The notes under the pieces: model-generated
Told to the model about the DNA's origin: nothing
Databases searched by the model: none
Seen by the model: only the letters and a program-made list of their open reading frames with translations
Shown here: positions 1-13,006 of the stretch, piece by piece
Layout of the letters: each line of letters begins with the position of its first letter
How positions within the stretch are numbered: position 1 is the stretch's first letter
IMG/VR virus record: IMGVR_UViG_3300050331_000118
Coordinates: 1-37,094 of that record
Direction: 5' to 3' (one strand)
Origin: a virus
Lineage: Duplodnaviria; Caudoviricetes
Length of the DNA: 37,094 nt
Position numbers and translations under genes: made by a program

Positions 1-873
1 ATGAGCACCCGGTCAACGAAAACGGCAATAGCCGACACGATGGCCGGGACAAGGCTGATCCGCGCGAATATCTCGGACATCCGGGTCGGTGCGCGGCTGC
101 GCCGGGTGCTGCCCGACCGGGTCGAGGCGCTGCGCGCGAGCTTTGCCGAAAAGGGGCAGTTGGTGCCAATCGACCTCGTCGAGGTCGATGGCGGCATGCG
201 CCTGGTCTACGGCGCCCACCGCCTGGCGGCGCGCGCGGCCGATGGCGCCGAGGACGTCCTTGCCGTGCTGCATCCGCGCGGGACGTTCGGCAGCGAGACA
301 GAGCTCCTGCTGCGCGAAGTCGCCGAGAACTTCGATCGCTTCGAACTGACCGTGCTGGAGCGGGCGGCGAACGTCGCCGCGCTGCGCGACATCCACTTGG
401 CCGAGCATGGGCAGGCAAAGCGGGGGCCAAAGCCGAAGCAGACCGTCGACGCGGCGATAGACGAGATTAGTGCCAAGTTGGCACTGAATTTCCCCGAGGT
501 CGTGCAGCGCGTCCTGAAGCTGTCCCGGCGCGATGTTTTCCGCGCCTTGAAAGTTGCTTCAATCGCGCCCGATCTGCGCGACCGGCTCGCAGCCCATGCC
601 ATTGCCGACAACCAATCCGAACTGCTCGCCATCGCGGCGGAAACGCCAGCGCGCCAGCATCGCATCGTCGAACTGCTGACGGCCGACGAGACGCCTGCCG
701 ACAGCGTCGCCGAGGCGCTCGCGATCATCGACCAGTTGCCGCCGCCGGTGGTGCTCCGCCCCTACGAACGTCTTTCCGAGGGCTTCTCCCGGCTCAAGCC
801 CGACGAGCGCGCCCGCTTCTTCGAGATGCATGCCGACGACATCGACCGCTGGCTGGCGGCAAGGGGCAAGTAA
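1..873 (+). CDS. ParB/Srx N-terminal domain (ParB-like) protein
   Basis: ParB-N pattern: RLRRV..VEAL..SF...GQLVPI, LVYGAHRLAA (GxxR box), ENFDRFELT..ERA, followed by a helical/HTH-like region. Confidence 0.85.
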   Translation: MSTRSTKTAIADTMAGTRLIRANISDIRVGARLRRVLPDRVEALRASFAEKGQLVPIDLVEVDGGMRLVYGAHRLAARAADGAEDVLAVLHPRGTFGSETELLLREVAENFDRFELTVLERAANVAALRDIHLAEHGQAKRGPKPKQTVDAAIDEISAKLALNFPEVVQRVLKLSRRDVFRALKVASIAPDLRDRLAAHAIADNQSELLAIAAETPARQHRIVELLTADETPADSVAEALAIIDQLPPPVVLRPYERLSEGFSRLKPDERARFFEMHADDIDRWLAARGK

Positions 874-1342: not shown

Positions 1343-3528
1343 CGCCGACCATCGCCGCCTTGAAGGAATGGCTGACGGCGCGCGAGATCGCCGATGCCGG
1401 TTTTGTCGAGCTCCCGGGAACAGAGAGCGCCGTAGTACGCTTGGCCAAGCGGGAAGGCTGGGACGAGCACCCCGCCTTCGCGCGTCGCCGTGCGGGCCGC
1501 GGCGGCGGCATGGAATACAGCATCCGACTGTTGCCCGCGCTGGCGCAAATCCAGTGGGCCGACAGGCACCTGGTGGTGAGCCGGCCGGAGCCGGAGCCCG
1601 AGGTCGGTTTGGTCGCCACGGCCGTTGGCGCAGCGCTGTCGGACCGGGCCCAGCGCGAGCGCGACGCGCGGCTCGCTATCGTCGCCGCCTTCGAAGCCTG
1701 GTCGCGCGGGCAGCGCCTGCGGTTCATGGCCCGGGTGCACCTGTTTTCGAGCAAGTACCGGGCCGGCTCCCTGCAGGTCGACACGTGGGTGAAGGACACC
1801 ATCCCCGCGTTCTCCGAGCGCTCGCTGATCCGTTGGTACTCGGCAAGGAAGGCCGGCCGCACCGACAGCCTGGCCGTCGACCGCGGCGCGGCCCGCAAGG
1901 GCACCGGCAAGCTCGAGACCGCCAATGACGGCCAGGTCAAGACCTTCATCCTGGCGCTGATCGCGCACCAGCCGCACCTCGCCGCGCACGACGTGCGCGA
2001 CCAGGTGGAGGACCGGTTCGGGCGCACGATCGAGGTCCGTGGCCGGCACGAAGCGCTCCCGCCGGTGCGCGCCTTCCAGCGCACCATCGCGGCGCTCAAG
2101 GCGTCGCATAAGGTCGCCCTCACCAAGGCGACCAATCCGGACCTCTACCGCTCGACCATGGCGCCGGCCGGCACCGGCACGTTGCGCCACATCACCGAGC
2201 CGAATGCACTGTGGATGATCGACGCCTCGCCCGTCGACGTGCTGTGCACCGATGGCCGGCATTCGATGTATGGCTGCATCGACATTGCCACTCGGCGCTT
2301 CGTGATCACCGTTTCGAAGACGCCGCGCGCCTCGGCCGTGGCTTTGATGATCCGCAAAGCGATCCTCGCCTGGGGCGTGCCCGAAACGATCAAGACCGAC
2401 AACGGCTCCGACTTCGTCGCCCGCGATACCAGGCGGCTGTTCGCCTCGCTCGGCATCGAAATGGACGTGTCCGACGCCTACTCGCCGCAGCAGAAGGGCC
2501 ATATCGAGCGGGCGATCAGGACGTTCCAGCACAATGTCGGGCCGCTGCTGCCCGGCTTCATCGGGCACTCGGTGGCGGATCGAAAGGCGATCGAGGCGCG
2601 CAAGAGCTTCGCGCAGCGCCTCGGCGAGAGCGAAGCCGACACGTTCGGGGTCGCGATCTCGTCGGCGGAGCTGCAGCGCTATGTCGACCAGTGGCTCGAG
2701 CAGGTGTACCAGCACCGCCCCCACGCGGGTCTCAAGGGCCGGTCGCCGTTCGAGCGAGCGGCGGAATCGCGGGCCTCGATCCGGACGGTGGACGAGCGCG
2801 CCCTCGATCTGCTGCTGATGCCGGTGGCCGGCAAGGATGGCCGCCGTACGGTCACCAAGTTCGGGGTCCGCATCGACGGCTACCACTACCAGACACCGAC
2901 GATCCTGCCTGGCGCCGAGGTCCTCGTGCGCATGGACCCCAACGACGCTGGCCGCGCCTATGCATTCGCGGCCGATGGCGGCGAGTACCTGGGCGAGGCT
3001 CTATGCGCCGAGCTGCGTGGCCTGCACCCGGCGACGCTGCAGAAGGCGACGCGCGAGGCGCATGCCGAGATCATCGGCGGCCACATAGCGCAGGCCAAGG
3101 CCGATATCCGCAAGCTGGGGAAGAAGCCGCTGATCGAGGCGGCCCTGCGGGTCGCGGCGAGCAAGGTGCCGAATGTGATCCCGCTCCCCAGGCGCGAGGA
3201 ACAGCATTCGACGCCGCAGATCGAGGCGGCGATCGCCGCCATGGCCGGGGAGCCGGTCAAGCCGGTGACCAGCAACGAGATCGACGAGTTTCATGCCCGC
3301 CAGCTGTCGGAGGCGGAGAACGCACCGCCGGCCAATGTCCGCAGGCTGCGGCAGACCGAAACCCCACACCAGCGCTTCGCGCGCGCCCTCGACGTCGAGG
3401 GGCGGCTGTCCGCCGCCCAGCCGGTGGAAGAGCGCGAGCTGGGATGGCTGGAGGCCTACCGCACGGGCGTCGAGTACCGCTCGATGCGGGAGAGCTGGGA
3501 AGAGAGCAACGGCTCGATGAGCCTGTAG
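1339..3528 (+). CDS. Mu-type DDE transposase (MuA-like)
   Basis: N-terminal Mu DNA-binding domain (EWLTAREIA..LPGT...GRGGGMEY); catalytic motifs WMIDAS, KTDNGSDF, KGHIER; C-terminal Mu-transposase-like region. Start chosen at the GTG overlapping the upstream TGA. Confidence 0.93.
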   Translation: MTPTIAALKEWLTAREIADAGFVELPGTESAVVRLAKREGWDEHPAFARRRAGRGGGMEYSIRLLPALAQIQWADRHLVVSRPEPEPEVGLVATAVGAALSDRAQRERDARLAIVAAFEAWSRGQRLRFMARVHLFSSKYRAGSLQVDTWVKDTIPAFSERSLIRWYSARKAGRTDSLAVDRGAARKGTGKLETANDGQVKTFILALIAHQPHLAAHDVRDQVEDRFGRTIEVRGRHEALPPVRAFQRTIAALKASHKVALTKATNPDLYRSTMAPAGTGTLRHITEPNALWMIDASPVDVLCTDGRHSMYGCIDIATRRFVITVSKTPRASAVALMIRKAILAWGVPETIKTDNGSDFVARDTRRLFASLGIEMDVSDAYSPQQKGHIERAIRTFQHNVGPLLPGFIGHSVADRKAIEARKSFAQRLGESEADTFGVAISSAELQRYVDQWLEQVYQHRPHAGLKGRSPFERAAESRASIRTVDERALDLLLMPVAGKDGRRTVTKFGVRIDGYHYQTPTILPGAEVLVRMDPNDAGRAYAFAADGGEYLGEALCAELRGLHPATLQKATREAHAEIIGGHIAQAKADIRKLGKKPLIEAALRVAASKVPNVIPLPRREEQHSTPQIEAAIAAMAGEPVKPVTSNEIDEFHARQLSEAENAPPANVRRLRQTETPHQRFARALDVEGRLSAAQPVEERELGWLEAYRTGVEYRSMRESWEESNGSMSL

Positions 3529-8745: not shown

Positions 8746-9134
8746 TGGTCGCCTACAACTTCAAGTCTTCATTCGTCGATCAGATCTCCGCCCGGACGAA
8801 GCGCCAGACGGTTCGCCACCAGGGCGGAAAGCGCCACGCGCGCCCTGGTGAACGTGTCCAACTCTACACCGGTCTGCGCACCAGGCACGCGAGGAAGATC
8901 ATCCCCGACCCGGTTTGTATCCGCGTCGCGCAGATCGTCATCCCGGTCGGGCGGGCCTATGAGGCAAAGGTAGGCCGCATCGAGCTCGATGGCATCCCAC
9001 TCGCCGACGATGAGATGGAGGCTTTCGCCTGGGCGGACGGCTTCCTCAGCCTCAGACACTTTGGCCGGTTCTGGCTGGCGACCCATGGCGAAGGCCTCTT
9101 CACCGGCGTCGTCATCTACTGGGCAGACGCATGA
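8745..9134 (+). CDS. ASCH-domain protein
   Basis: F...FV.QI...TKRQTVR...PGE.VQLYTG.RT; AFAWADGF; VVIYW. Confidence 0.75.
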   Translation: MVAYNFKSSFVDQISARTKRQTVRHQGGKRHARPGERVQLYTGLRTRHARKIIPDPVCIRVAQIVIPVGRAYEAKVGRIELDGIPLADDEMEAFAWADGFLSLRHFGRFWLATHGEGLFTGVVIYWADA

Positions 9135-9853
9135 GCAAGGCCGGGCCCACCTCGACGGCGGTACGGGCCTCCCGGCGGAACGCCGCGAGTGCGCTCGACT
9201 TCTTCCCGACGCCGCCCTGGGCGGTGCGCGCGCTGGTCGGTGAGGTGCTGCGGCCGCAGCTGGGCGCGCCGATGTCGGCCATGTCGGTATGGGAGCCGGC
9301 CTGCGGTGCGGGACATTGCGCCATCCCGCTCGCCGAGACGTTCGGGCGCGCGTTCGCGACCGACGTGCACGACTGGGGCTATGGCGCCGTCCGCGATCTC
9401 GATTTTTCCTTCTGCGGCCCGGGCGAGGCGCCCTGGCCGGTCGACTGGGTCATCACCAACCCGCCCTTCACCCTGGCTGCGATGTTCGCCCGGCGCGGCC
9501 TTGCGATCGCGCGGCGCGGCGTGGCGCTGCTGCTGCGGCTGCAGTGGCTCGAAGGGGGTGAGCGGTACCACCAGTTCTTCGCCCCGGGCGCGCCGCACCG
9601 GGCCAGCAGGATCGTCGTCTTCGCCGAGCGCGTCCCGATGATCGAGGGCGCTTGGGATCCCGAAGCCAGCTCGGCGACGGCCTATTGCTGGGTGATCTGG
9701 GACAAGCGGGACGTGCCCAGGGGCCCGGGTATCCCGACAGTGCATCTGCCGCCCGGCATGGCTGACGCCTACACGCGTCCCGCCGATGAAGCCCTCGCCA
9801 TGCGGGGCGAAGCGGCCCGCCGGCGGGCCAGGCGGACGGCAGAGGTGGCGTGA
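9131..9853 (+). CDS. SAM-dependent amino (N6-adenine/N4-cytosine) DNA methyltransferase, orphan
   Basis: DFFPTPPW, motif I VWEPACGAG, motif IV WVITNPPF; no adjacent restriction endonuclease. Confidence 0.85.
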   Translation: MSKAGPTSTAVRASRRNAASALDFFPTPPWAVRALVGEVLRPQLGAPMSAMSVWEPACGAGHCAIPLAETFGRAFATDVHDWGYGAVRDLDFSFCGPGEAPWPVDWVITNPPFTLAAMFARRGLAIARRGVALLLRLQWLEGGERYHQFFAPGAPHRASRIVVFAERVPMIEGAWDPEASSATAYCWVIWDKRDVPRGPGIPTVHLPPGMADAYTRPADEALAMRGEAARRRARRTAEVA

Positions 9854-10092: not shown

Positions 10093-10337
10093 TGAGGCGA
10101 CGGCAGGCCAGCCTGGTGGTGTCGGATCACGCGGTGCTGCGGTGGTTGCAGGTCGAATACGGCCTCGACGTCGAACGGGTGCGCGAGCACCTCACGACGC
10201 GTGCGACCGACGCCGCCGAATACGGCGCCATCGCCCTGCAGACCGGCAGGGTCAAGATGCTGCTCAGGGACGAAGGCGTGATCGGCGAGGCCACCAAGGT
10301 GGTCATGGTCGACGTCCGGGGCCGCGCGAGGCCCTAG
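10092..10337 (+). CDS. Conserved small phage protein
   Basis: VVSDHAVLRWL...YGLDVE motif common in phage proteins; TGATG coupling (alternative start 10077). Confidence 0.6.
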   Translation: MRRRQASLVVSDHAVLRWLQVEYGLDVERVREHLTTRATDAAEYGAIALQTGRVKMLLRDEGVIGEATKVVMVDVRGRARP

Positions 10338-10735
10338 TGAGCAGCGACCGCCTGGGCCTGCCGGCCGTCCTCGCCGAGATCGCCGAAGCCGCGGGGCTCG
10401 ATGCCGCGCGGGCGATCGCGGCCGCCAAGGGCGGGCAGACGGTCTATATCCCCCACCGGGCGCGAGAGGGCCACTGGCTCACCGACCTGGTGGGGCTGAC
10501 GGCGGCGCAGCAGATCTGCGCCCATTTCGCCGCCCCCTCGGCTGGCGGCCGCGCTGCCGGGCAGCGCGTCCTCATCCCCATGGCCAGGGTACGGGCTGGC
10601 GAGGTGATGATGCGGGCGATCGAGGCGGGTGGCTCGGCCAACCGCATCGCGGCGACCACAGGCAGGCACGAGCGCACGGTGCGGCGCTACCGCCGCAAGC
10701 TCAGGGCCGGCGGCATGGGGCCGCTGTTCGAGTAG
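10337..10735 (+). CDS. Mor/C-family late transcription activator
   Basis: LPAVLAEIAE..GLDAA..IA...GGQTVYIP dimerisation motif plus C-terminal HTH (SANRIAATTGRHERTVRRY); last early gene before lysis. Confidence 0.85.
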   Translation: MSSDRLGLPAVLAEIAEAAGLDAARAIAAAKGGQTVYIPHRAREGHWLTDLVGLTAAQQICAHFAAPSAGGRAAGQRVLIPMARVRAGEVMMRAIEAGGSANRIAATTGRHERTVRRYRRKLRAGGMGPLFE

Positions 10736-10852
10736 CTGCCGCGCCTAGCCTAGCACGGCGTGTCGCCCTGCACTCTGTTGTAGGATCGCCCGGCGATGGG
10801 CCACCAGCCCTAGCGACTGTTCTCTGTCCGTTCCCGGCGATATGCTCGGCGC

Positions 10853-11116
10853 ATGTCGACATCGAGGGACAATGATGATCCTGCCAAGCGTATTTGGCCA
10901 GGCGGCTCGCACCAGAACACCCTGGGCGGAACCTCCATTGAAGTGGCGACGCGGCGGATGCTCGAGAAGAATCGGGAATGGTCGCTGCTACCGGGTAATG
11001 TGCAGTATGAAGCGCTGAGGCGAGAGGGCCATGAGCTGCGGGCCCGGCAGAAGGCGGCAGGCAGGCCAAACGGGATGATAGGCCCGCCCAACCCATACAA
11101 GCCGCACCGGAAGTGA
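10853..11116 (+). CDS. Small accessory (moron-like) hypothetical protein, possibly leaderless
   Basis: TATGCT -10-like hexamer at 10841-10846, 6 nt before the ATG; no SD; atypical codon use. Confidence 0.45.
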   Translation: MSTSRDNDDPAKRIWPGGSHQNTLGGTSIEVATRRMLEKNREWSLLPGNVQYEALRREGHELRARQKAAGRPNGMIGPPNPYKPHRK

Positions 11117-11251
11117 CGAGCCAGCGCACGCCCGTTTCCTGAGTGCGGCCTTGACCAGTCCTCGCCACGAGTGTCCCCTTTGGACCAGCAAAGGGCGTCG
11201 ACTACGCCGAGCGAGTTGCCGGCAAGAGGCTCTGATCGAAAGGGGGCGAAC

Positions 11252-11890
11252 ATGGACCTCATCACCTCATCGTTGGCGCCGATGAATGACCTTAGAGCCC
11301 GGCACCAGGCCGTCATTGACCTCATCTGCTTCAACGACCAACGGGCGACGGAATTTCTGCGGCTGTACGTGACGGTCGCGCTCGCTGCAGGCGCAGGAGC
11401 GATCAGCGCTTTTGCCGGGGATCAGTTGCTTACAAAGGCCACCGGCTGGGGACTACTCGCGTCCCTCATACCGCTTGCCGCCGGGTGCTTCTACTGCTTG
11501 GAGGCGTCGAAATCCGCCGTTCTGAATCTCCCCGGTCGAGGCGCCGAGTTCTGGAAATGGGCTGGCGGGGACGAGGTCTCAGAGCAGGCGGTAATACAGG
11601 CATACCTCGAGAACCTCGAGGCGAAGCAGAAGGCCAACAATGAGATTAACTATCGCTCGGCGAGGGATTTAGCGCAGGCGAAGCAGGCTGGCATTGTTGC
11701 AGCCATGGTTGGCCTGGTGGTGGGACTGATCGCTGGCGCCATTATCGCAGCCACGGTTAGCCTGGCGGCGGGTCTGATCGCTGCCGCCATTGTCACCTGG
11801 GCTTCGGCTTCGGATCGTCGCTCTTCTGATTATCCCAATCAGTCGGCGGCGGCGGAGGAGGCGGAGGCGGTGCGGGCCGGGGTTCCTTAG
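11252..11890 (+). CDS. Accessory multi-pass membrane protein, Pycsar-effector-like topology
   Basis: AAGGGG RBS; NDQRA then two hydrophobic helices, a soluble loop, NNEINYRSARDL and C-terminal hydrophobic helices; lower GC than flanks (alternative GTG start 11171). Confidence 0.65.
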   Translation: MDLITSSLAPMNDLRARHQAVIDLICFNDQRATEFLRLYVTVALAAGAGAISAFAGDQLLTKATGWGLLASLIPLAAGCFYCLEASKSAVLNLPGRGAEFWKWAGGDEVSEQAVIQAYLENLEAKQKANNEINYRSARDLAQAKQAGIVAAMVGLVVGLIAGAIIAATVSLAAGLIAAAIVTWASASDRRSSDYPNQSAAAEEAEAVRAGVP

Positions 11891-11906
11891 GGTCGTCGTT
11901 TACCAT
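11793..11906 (-). CDS. 37-aa poly-proline peptide MVNDDPKEPRPAPPPPPPPPPTDWDNQKSDDPKPKPR (absent from the ORF track)
   Basis: Hand-translated; AGAGGAG RBS 7 nt before the ATG and a TTCACA-N17-CATTCT promoter immediately upstream. Confidence 0.65.
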   Translation of the reverse strand: MVNDDPKEPRPAPPPPPPPPPTDWDNQKSDDPKPKPR

Positions 11907-11930
11907 CGTGAGTCTCCTCTTCGCTCGCAG

Positions 11931-11959
11931 AGAATGCGCCGACTGCGATCAGATGTGAA
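11931..11959 (-). promoter_or_regulatory. sigma70-type promoter for the antisense poly-Pro peptide gene
   Basis: Minus strand TTCACA (11959-11954), 17-nt spacer, CATTCT (11936-11931). Confidence 0.55.
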
Positions 11960-12002
11960 GAGCGCACCCCACCACTTCTAAGGGCCAAAAGAAACGACGC
12001 CC

Positions 12003-12047
12003 CGGACATTTGTCCGGGGCGTTTGCGTATGGCCTGCGAGGCACAAT
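12003..12047 (+). promoter_or_regulatory. Putative late promoter for the lysis/packaging operon with activator dyad
   Basis: CGGACA-TT-TGTCCG-GGGCGTTTG (12003-12025), identical to 19933-19955; -10-like CACAAT at 12042-12047. Confidence 0.7.
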
Positions 12048-12106
12048 CGTACCCGATTTGACGCGCCGGGCAATCCCCCCGGCGCATGTCGTAGAGCGGG
12101 TGCACC

Positions 12107-13006
12107 ATGCGGACATCGGACCAGGGCTTAGAGATGCTGGAGGGCGAGGAGGGCGTGGTGCTGCGCGCCTATCGCTGCCCCGCCGGCGTGTGGACGATCG
12201 GCACCGGGCTCACGGCCGCCTCGGGCGTCGTCAAACCGAAGAAGGGCATGACCATCACTCGCGAGGAGAACCGCCGGCTGACGCGGCTCGCGCTGGCGCG
12301 CAACTACGAGCCGCGGGTCGCCAGAGCGCTCGGCGCTGTCGCCCAGCACGTCTTCGACGGGGCCGTCAGCTTCGACTGGAATACCGGCGCCATCCTTCGG
12401 GCGAGATGGGTGGGCGAGTTCCTGGCCGGCCGGATCGCGACGGCCGCGCTGCGTTTCAAACAGTGGAACAAGGCCGGTGGGAAGGTGCTCGCCGGGCTCA
12501 CGGCGCGGCGCGGCCGGGAGTGGACGCTGATCGAGTTCGGTCGCTACCCCGCCGGCGCGTCATCGGTGTCCGAGCCCGCCGATTACGCCGCTGACCTGCG
12601 TGCTCTCGGCTATCGCGAGGCGAAGCTCGGCCAGGCTGTGCGCGCCTTCCAGGCCGAGCACGGGCTCACCGTCGACGGCATCGTCGGACCGGCGACGCGC
12701 GCCACCATCGCCCGCGTCAAGGCGGAGCGGCAGGCGGACAAGGCGACGGGCGCCGCGAGTGCCGGCGGCGCGACCGCGGGCGGCGGCGCCGAAGTCACGG
12801 TCAACCCCGCGCCCGGGAGCACGGAGGGCGTCGACCTGTCCACGCTGCTCTGGGCCCTCGGCGGCGCCCTGGTACTCGGCCTCACCGTCTATTTGCTGTT
12901 CCTCGCCTGGCGCTATCGCGGCCCGCTCTTCGCCTGGCTGCCCGAGCCGGTGAAGGACTGGTTCGAAGGCCGCGGCATCGTGCTCGGCCGCCGCGTGCGC
13001 ACCTGA
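12107..13006 (+). CDS. Endolysin: GH24 lysozyme + peptidoglycan-binding domain + C-terminal transmembrane helix
   Basis: EG....[46 protein letters not shown]; [21 protein letters not shown]; [22 protein letters not shown]. Confidence 0.92.

Follow-up and report, generated by a model that had tools for sequence, protein, structure and literature searches.

A proline-rich peptide gene set opposite a distantly PycTM-like membrane protein gene: an apparently mobile two-gene cassette in a Mu-like provirus

We uncovered what is apparently a real, conserved and undescribed two-gene cassette, in which the gene for a predicted three-helix membrane protein is faced on the opposite strand by a short gene for a charged, proline-rich peptide; judged from its sequence it follows the theme of a membrane effector with a partner, and its function is hypothetical. 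No description of this pairing was found in the literature searched, with most subscription papers and supplements lying outside that search and with defence-prediction tables being a place where the membrane family could be listed. The stretch of DNA analysed, hereafter the window (37,094 nucleotides), is an IMG/VR provirus with a Mu-like gene set comprising a Mu transposase, an AAA protein, GemA, a Mor-type activator and a Mu portal protein. Its host is probably an alphaproteobacterium, because the named relatives of the finding come from Alphaproteobacteria, mostly Hyphomicrobiales. A public contig, possibly derived from the source sample itself, is identical to 10600-11958 with 0 differences. 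The features of the locus are as follows:

10736..12106: lower-GC insert between the gene for the Mor-like late activator (10334-10735) and the lysin gene (12107-13006)
11240..11246, plus strand: purine-rich, RBS-like stretch ahead of the ATG of the membrane protein gene, judged from the sequence
11252..11890, plus strand: membrane protein gene, 212 aa, three hydrophobic helices; phrog_25606 (unknown function)
11692..11787, plus strand: 48-nt tandem duplication, copies 83% alike, adding 16 residues in the third helix
11793..11890: 98-nt coding overlap, taking up the last part of the membrane ORF 11252-11890 (plus strand)
11906-11793, minus strand: peptide gene, 37 aa, ATG start; acidic start, nine-Pro run, motif P-x-D-W-x-x-x-K-S, basic end
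11920-11914, minus strand: RBS AGAGGAG, 7 nt ahead of the peptide ATG
11931..11959, minus strand: predicted sigma-70-type promoter of the peptide gene, TTCACA (11959-54), 17 nt, CATTCT (11936-31)
11987..12022, minus strand: terminator-like hairpin with a U tail, arms 11997-12008 and 12011-12022, between the cassette and the lysin gene

The original prediction had placed a complete minus-strand expression unit here, and the 37-aa ORF, its ATG, its RBS and its overlap with the last 98 nt of the membrane gene are all found where it had put them. Apart from the nine-Pro run (11870-11844), none of the six frames holds a run of five or more prolines. Of the proposed promoter, the two hexamers are indeed present, but they score only 8/12, a stock scanner reports 0 promoters and 3 minus-strand sites this good occur in the window. 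Weak when taken alone, the predicted promoter draws support from the relatives: of 19 peptide genes, 11 have a site scoring 8/12 or better in the 150 nt upstream, as against 3.4 expected from shuffles, and in six of those 11 the -10 element ends 24-28 nt ahead of the peptide ATG. The terminator-like hairpin is a single find where 1.0 is expected by chance, and no terminator was found between the two genes in the window. The description of the peptide gene as the only well-supported minus-strand gene holds within the window, where just two minus-strand ATG ORFs of at least 25 aa have a strong RBS, the other one lying inside the terminase gene, and where 0 of 116 minus-strand ORFs of at least 65 aa match PHROGs. 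Since the provirus is about 94% complete, a leftward repressor gene may simply lie outside the window; the IMG/VR record itself seems to begin past the repressor region. A ParB-like gene (1-873, plus strand; phrog_3264) precedes the Mu transposase gene, and a DNA methyltransferase-like gene (9131-9853, plus strand; phrog_799) is located in the early region.

The minus-strand gene looks both real and conserved when the loci of the membrane family are compared. On inspection, the membrane gene meets a short ORF, charged and rich in Pro, tail-to-tail at 22 of 27 distinct loci, the window counted, and the strands are opposite in all 22. A fixed rule that calls for the opposite strand, an RBS, 25-80 codons and a stop close to that of the partner is passed by 20 of the 27 loci as compared to 13 of 84 control genes (p 3e-8); a composition cut-off, picked after the peptides had been seen, separates them as 16/27 versus 1/84. 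The convergent RBS-led ORF expected at homologous loci is thus present, and with it the co-occurrence on which the idea of a two-component accessory module depends. Most loci were located via a motif of the membrane protein; the choice of membrane genes is biased by this, the presence of the peptide is not. Loci were removed as duplicates (L002, L025-L028, L031, L033, L034, L036, L044, L046, L047, L049), as cut before the stop (L023, L029) or as weak matches (L041-L043, L054).

The part of the peptide that is conserved is a motif just past the prolines, left unremarked in the first reading: P-x-D-[W/T/H]-x-x-x-[K/R] occurs in 20 of the 22 peptides, those of L035 and L037 lacking it. Among positions of 17 aligned peptides that do not anchor the alignment, K is found in 15/17, S in 12/17 and E in 12/17. 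The motif residues are kept by synonymous codons, with Ser encoded as both AGC and TCN, and the retention of these K, S and E positions through synonymous changes points to selection acting on the peptide. Neither the overlap nor the proline run is the conserved feature, because the former ranges from -3 to 98 nt among the relatives (commonest 4) and the longest run from 1 to 9 in the 21 peptides measured; the 98-nt overlap, to which the original prediction gave weight, is hence a local trait. A profile of the peptide finds 18 database proteins at E up to 10, of which 14 are at E up to 0.001, some being input peptides; the proteins found are unnamed or hypothetical, and the Atlas gave no usable match for the peptide. 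Of the 3 matches from motif scans of viral contigs, 2 are known loci and the third lies by chance antisense to an ATPase gene, too small a sample on the occurrence of the peptide without the membrane gene. One membrane gene faces a tandem pair of peptide ORFs, both of which contain PPPDW, at two loci (L013:1218-1637 and L032:258-627, minus strand). A read-through fusion of the peptide and the membrane protein was considered and is ruled out by the opposite strands and the variable frame.

For the membrane protein, phrog_25606 is the sole clear family assignment. It has 8 close homologues, and 159 representatives, itself included, are gathered at E 0.001; Asp-29 is kept in 98 of 115 family members. 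The predicted structure is all-helical (pLDDT 94), and searches with it against solved structures and folds bring up generic helical bundles only. Pfam, PADLOC, NCBIfam and Rfam give no family, PADLOC returning one weak row (E 0.015); tblastn finds nothing in annotated phages with 4 queries, and against plasmids one query came back empty while three brought up a single distant record. There is an alternative start at 11282. The last 32 residues of the protein in the window are read-through over the peptide gene, a minority layout among homologues that recurs in 4 of the 8 close ones and in 3 further representatives. The 48-nt duplication is not present in the 8 closest homologues; it stretches the third hydrophobic segment to about 45 residues and could either add a helix or impair the protein.

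The original prediction had called this protein Pycsar-effector-like, which stands at the level of the superfamily and fails at that of the Pfam family. The family profile aligns with an 18-row PycTM alignment over 140 columns at 95.3% (hhalign, E 2.4e-8), a score that membrane helices can inflate, and PycTM clusters rank second and third among the Atlas structure neighbours, their TM values of 0.59 and 0.63 being under the naming bar of the tool. PF18967 is not matched by the protein of the window, nor by any of 115 family members at E 0.01, and weak precomputed PF18967 marks are seen on 4 of the 8 close homologues. We therefore read the protein, from profile and structural comparisons, as a probable distant relative in the PycTM (pJV1-SpdB3 3TM) superfamily and not as a member of the PycTM family. 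PycTM itself disrupts membranes once activated, according to the available text of PMC11224242. The PR...FFG signature of PycTM is replaced in the window family by LPGR..FW.W, and in view of this replacement the function may have shifted from that of PycTM. No Pfam cyclase family was detected at E 1e-5 in 137 ORFs of at least 110 aa within 4 kb of the membrane gene at 18 loci; because no cyclase was found beside the membrane gene, the pair does not appear to be Pycsar. The same kind of rule finds an abutting opposite-strand ORF at 0 of 20 PF18967 loci examined, and PF18967 proteins are also found away from evident defence genes.

The pair sits in a variable slot between the Mor and lysin genes, a moron position. 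In the window its neighbours are Mor, an 87-aa ORF and the lysin; the 1.37-kb insert that holds it has a GC content of 62.5% versus 68.4%, and a GC3 of 0.71 versus about 0.9. The family is found in 0 of 28 related Mor loci, and the 1372 nt that lead to the lysin here compare with 21-645 nt from Mor to the first long downstream ORF in the 27 related loci with enough DNA. The proposed moron position before the lysis genes is thereby borne out: the pair lies between conserved genes, is absent from relatives and deviates in composition, with a promoter and a terminator of its own predicted. The 87-aa ORF (10853-11116, plus strand), likewise within the low-GC insert, has no clear RBS and no family match; tblastn found no match for it in the 28 related Mor loci, and it may be a remnant or a second accessory gene. 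In L088, the Mu-like relative with the most similar lysin, a different 121-aa gene occupies the same slot right after Mor; its product may resemble a thermonuclease-type protein, going by a motif.

The pair travels jointly in prophages, integrative elements and an IS1595, as a cassette some 600 bp long. In all four of the non-Phyllobacterium pairs compared, DNA likeness is nearly confined to the two genes (about 550-650 bp). Genes for integrases, recombinases, transposases or phage structural proteins lie within 4 kb at 6 of the 18 loci scanned, and 2 more are viral contigs; the scan took in 137 of the 156 ORFs of these neighbourhoods, with the membrane genes and an overlapping frame set aside. 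The spread is patchy: within one order, 5 of 401 genomes match the family strongly. In a class-wide draw 2 of 401 match, one of which is the centre genome. In L010 (4468-5639) the cassette directly follows an IS1595-family transposase gene, with the peptide on the transposase strand, and may ride this element as a passenger. A distant relative on a plasmid (L048; NZ_CP049211.1, about 44-55 kb) is placed between a methyltransferase/GIY-YIG operon and a reverse transcriptase gene, surroundings that are defence-island-like.

Five loci lack the peptide (L014, L015, L016, L020 and L022). They are chromosomal, belong to a Phyllobacterium-type lineage and keep the membrane gene intact; the three that appear in the tree group as a single Phyllobacterium clade, nested and with short branches (100/100), and these are syntenic over kilobases with Asn at the position of the conserved Asp-29. 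This is one loss in a settled copy, and a nested, short-branched, syntenic lineage with Asn at that position fits domestication. Unless the copy concerned is disarmed, its loss of the peptide speaks against an antidote that cannot be dispensed with. The copy without the peptide offers a natural control for function.

A related family forms a sister clade (hhalign 98.4%), one protein of which is named a Pycsar effector in UniRef. On inspection all 13 of its distinct loci have a small Pro/Lys-rich opposite-strand ORF; four of these loci (L081, L085-L087) were added after the pattern had been noticed, and all four fit. The layouts comprise 7 head-to-head loci whose start codons overlap or adjoin, a divergent case that is weaker, 4 tail-to-tail loci and 1 with both; the head-to-head loci, the weak divergent case and the locus with both layouts make up one clade (100/96). 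The pairing is weaker evidence than that of the window family: RBS signals are uneven, no motif is shared with the window-type peptides or among the sister-clade ORFs, and chance head-to-head ORFs occur at 13 of 22 window-family genes, although their charged-plus-Pro content is at most 0.53 versus 0.53-0.75 in the sister clade. The start codons overlap or nearly so, mostly in a CATG or ATGCAT palindrome, in L038, L039, L040, L050, L051, L081 and L085, which puts the RBS of the small ORF within the antisense strand of the membrane gene. In L086 related basic ORFs stand on the opposite strand at either side of the membrane gene (2300-2470 and 3026-3172); they belong to a different peptide type, which recurs at L048:5494-5658, and L086 is a possible intermediate between the tail-to-tail and head-to-head layouts.

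We propose, with a probability of about 0.4, that the pair is a mobile cassette in which the peptide would be an antidote that keeps a predicted membrane-damaging protein shut. The membrane protein would oligomerise and breach or depolarise the inner membrane, as reported for PycTM; the small, charged and probably short-lived peptide, made from its own sigma-70-type promoter, would bind the cytoplasmic face of the protein via P-x-D-W-x-x-x-K, the prolines serving as a stiff spacer. Were the supply of peptide to stop, either because a phage shuts off host expression or because the element is lost, the effector would be set free, resulting in abortive infection or addiction. The overlapping opposite-strand transcript may moreover damp the mRNA of the membrane gene as a second layer. 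We favour an antidote because a housekeeping-type promoter with a strong RBS suits the steady supply of a small labile protein, and because joint mobility suits addiction or defence. Against it count the intact membrane genes without a peptide at the five Phyllobacterium-type loci, and the invariable placement of the partner on the other strand, whereas protein antidotes are usually co-transcribed with their toxins. In a search for covariation between the two proteins, the match of W/T in the peptide to Gly/Asp at residue 97 of the membrane protein looked suggestive, yet it came second among 165 columns, and even the top column lacked significance (permutation 0.057, 13 lineages). A complex predicted from two membrane chains and one peptide scored 0.11 (mark 0.32), which speaks neither for nor against binding. 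A more far-reaching picture, which we hold to be doubtful, is that of a PycTM-superfamily branch in which the cyclic-nucleotide signal has been swapped for a tiny encoded opposite-strand ligand, with RNA- and peptide-level control from one locus, and which defends or addicts alphaproteobacterial mobile elements.

First among the alternatives, though unlikely, is a non-lethal pair, in which the membrane protein excludes superinfecting phages or has some other function at the envelope and the peptide is its cofactor, or in which the peptide acts on a separate host or phage target. The moron position, the PF18967 relatives outside evident defence loci and the Phyllobacterium copies that persist although the peptide is gone would all agree with such a role, as would the family name pJV1-SpdB3, which is reportedly taken from a Streptomyces plasmid-spreading protein; however, it leaves both the always-abutting opposite-strand peptide gene and the joint transfer unexplained. 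Next, and unlikely as well, the peptide could be an activating ligand that replaces the Pycsar cyclic nucleotide and opens the membrane protein, the opposite strands preventing co-production until a trigger arrives. Such a ligand would accord with the lack of a cyclase family in the neighbouring ORFs, the opposite strands, found at each of the 22 paired loci and likewise in the sister clade, the short conserved motif and a loss in Phyllobacterium that would do no harm, but the housekeeping-type promoter and strong RBS at many loci suggest steady expression, and no conserved regulator or sensor gene is found near the 18 loci.

Less probable again is control exerted mainly by an antisense RNA in the manner of type I systems, with the peptide as a second product or with its translation only stabilising the antisense transcript. 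The opposite-strand geometry in two forms, a 3' overlap here and a start overlap in the sister clade, corresponds to type I layouts in the available text of PMC4147584, no terminator separates the genes in the window, and dual-function cis-antisense RNAs exist, for example SR7/SR7P (available text of PMC12612679). On the other side stand the amino-acid motif kept through synonymous change, the lack of an Rfam match at threshold, a coding overlap of mostly few bases and a partner of 165-212 aa, which is not a small type I toxin; a structured antisense RNA is not supported either, the peptide mRNA region folding no better than shuffles (z +1.3).

The suggestion in the original prediction that the poly-Pro run senses EF-P or the state of translation appears very improbable. 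Runs of three or more prolines need EF-P, and 16 of 21 peptides have such runs, but the run length varies, being at most 2 in 5 of the 21, and the conserved residues sit after the run. A chance origin of the small ORF from GC-rich antisense sequence, DNA of this kind yielding many antisense ORFs such as those of the control genes, is scarcely credible in the face of the motif, RBS, promoter position and synonymous variation over many genera, and of the database proteins matching the peptide profile.

Stand-alone PycTM-like genes look orphaned where their partner is a 30-60 codon opposite-strand gene, often dropped or left hypothetical in annotation; here, an orphan-looking PycTM-like family gains a defined partner and a motif. 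If the peptide does gate the membrane protein, this would be a mode of control not found for the superfamily in the literature searched, and one that is testable with a cassette of about 700 bp. If true, the pair would also give Hyphomicrobiales phages, whose accessory genes have received little study, a candidate module for defence or addiction, and would supply a search rule for other orphan effectors, namely a short RBS-led opposite-strand ORF at either end.

Among known systems, the cassette resembles the Pycsar/Pucsar effectors (PycTM, PucTM; PF18967) in its three-helix membrane protein, similar size and full-length profile match, and differs from them in the lack of a cyclase found nearby, a score below the Pfam cut-off, another loop signature and the peptide gene as partner. 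In a Pycsar/Pucsar system, a cNMP cyclase gene (PycC/PucC) stands next to the gene of an effector that responds to cCMP, cUMP or cGMP. Type II toxin-antitoxin systems consist of two genes in one operon; with these and with toxin-antidote abortive-infection modules the pair shares the form of a two-gene mobile cassette, a small low-complexity partner and a patchy spread, whereas it forms no operon (opposite strands 22/22), its partner has no DNA-binding domain or family match, and neutralisation is hypothetical here. Like the type I systems (txpA/RatA, bsrG/SR4, symE/SymR), it occurs in prophages and joins a membrane or toxic gene to a small opposite-strand partner, and in the available text of PMC4147584 type I loci have the same two layouts, a 3' overlap and a start overlap. 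The cis overlap exists here at the level of coding sequence (98 nt in the window, -3 to 98 nt among relatives), but the type I antitoxin is a non-coding RNA, RatA having no ORF in the available text of the same source, while the partner described here encodes a peptide under apparent amino-acid selection and may act as an RNA as well. Furthermore, the presumed toxin, with 3TM and 165-212 aa (212 aa and three helices in the window), contrasts with the small hydrophobic peptide of about 60 aa or less that is the typical type I toxin, to which SymE, of 113 aa, is a known exception (available text of PMC4147584). Bacillus subtilis SR7/SR7P, as given in the available text of PMC12612679, is a dual-function cis-antisense RNA that overlaps the 3' end of a gene and encodes a peptide of about 40 aa; the cassette is like it in having a peptide-coding opposite-strand transcript, predicted here, over the 3' end of a gene, and is unlike it in that SR7P targets enolase and not the product of the overlapped gene, and in that SR7 is chromosomal whereas the cassette is apparently mobile.
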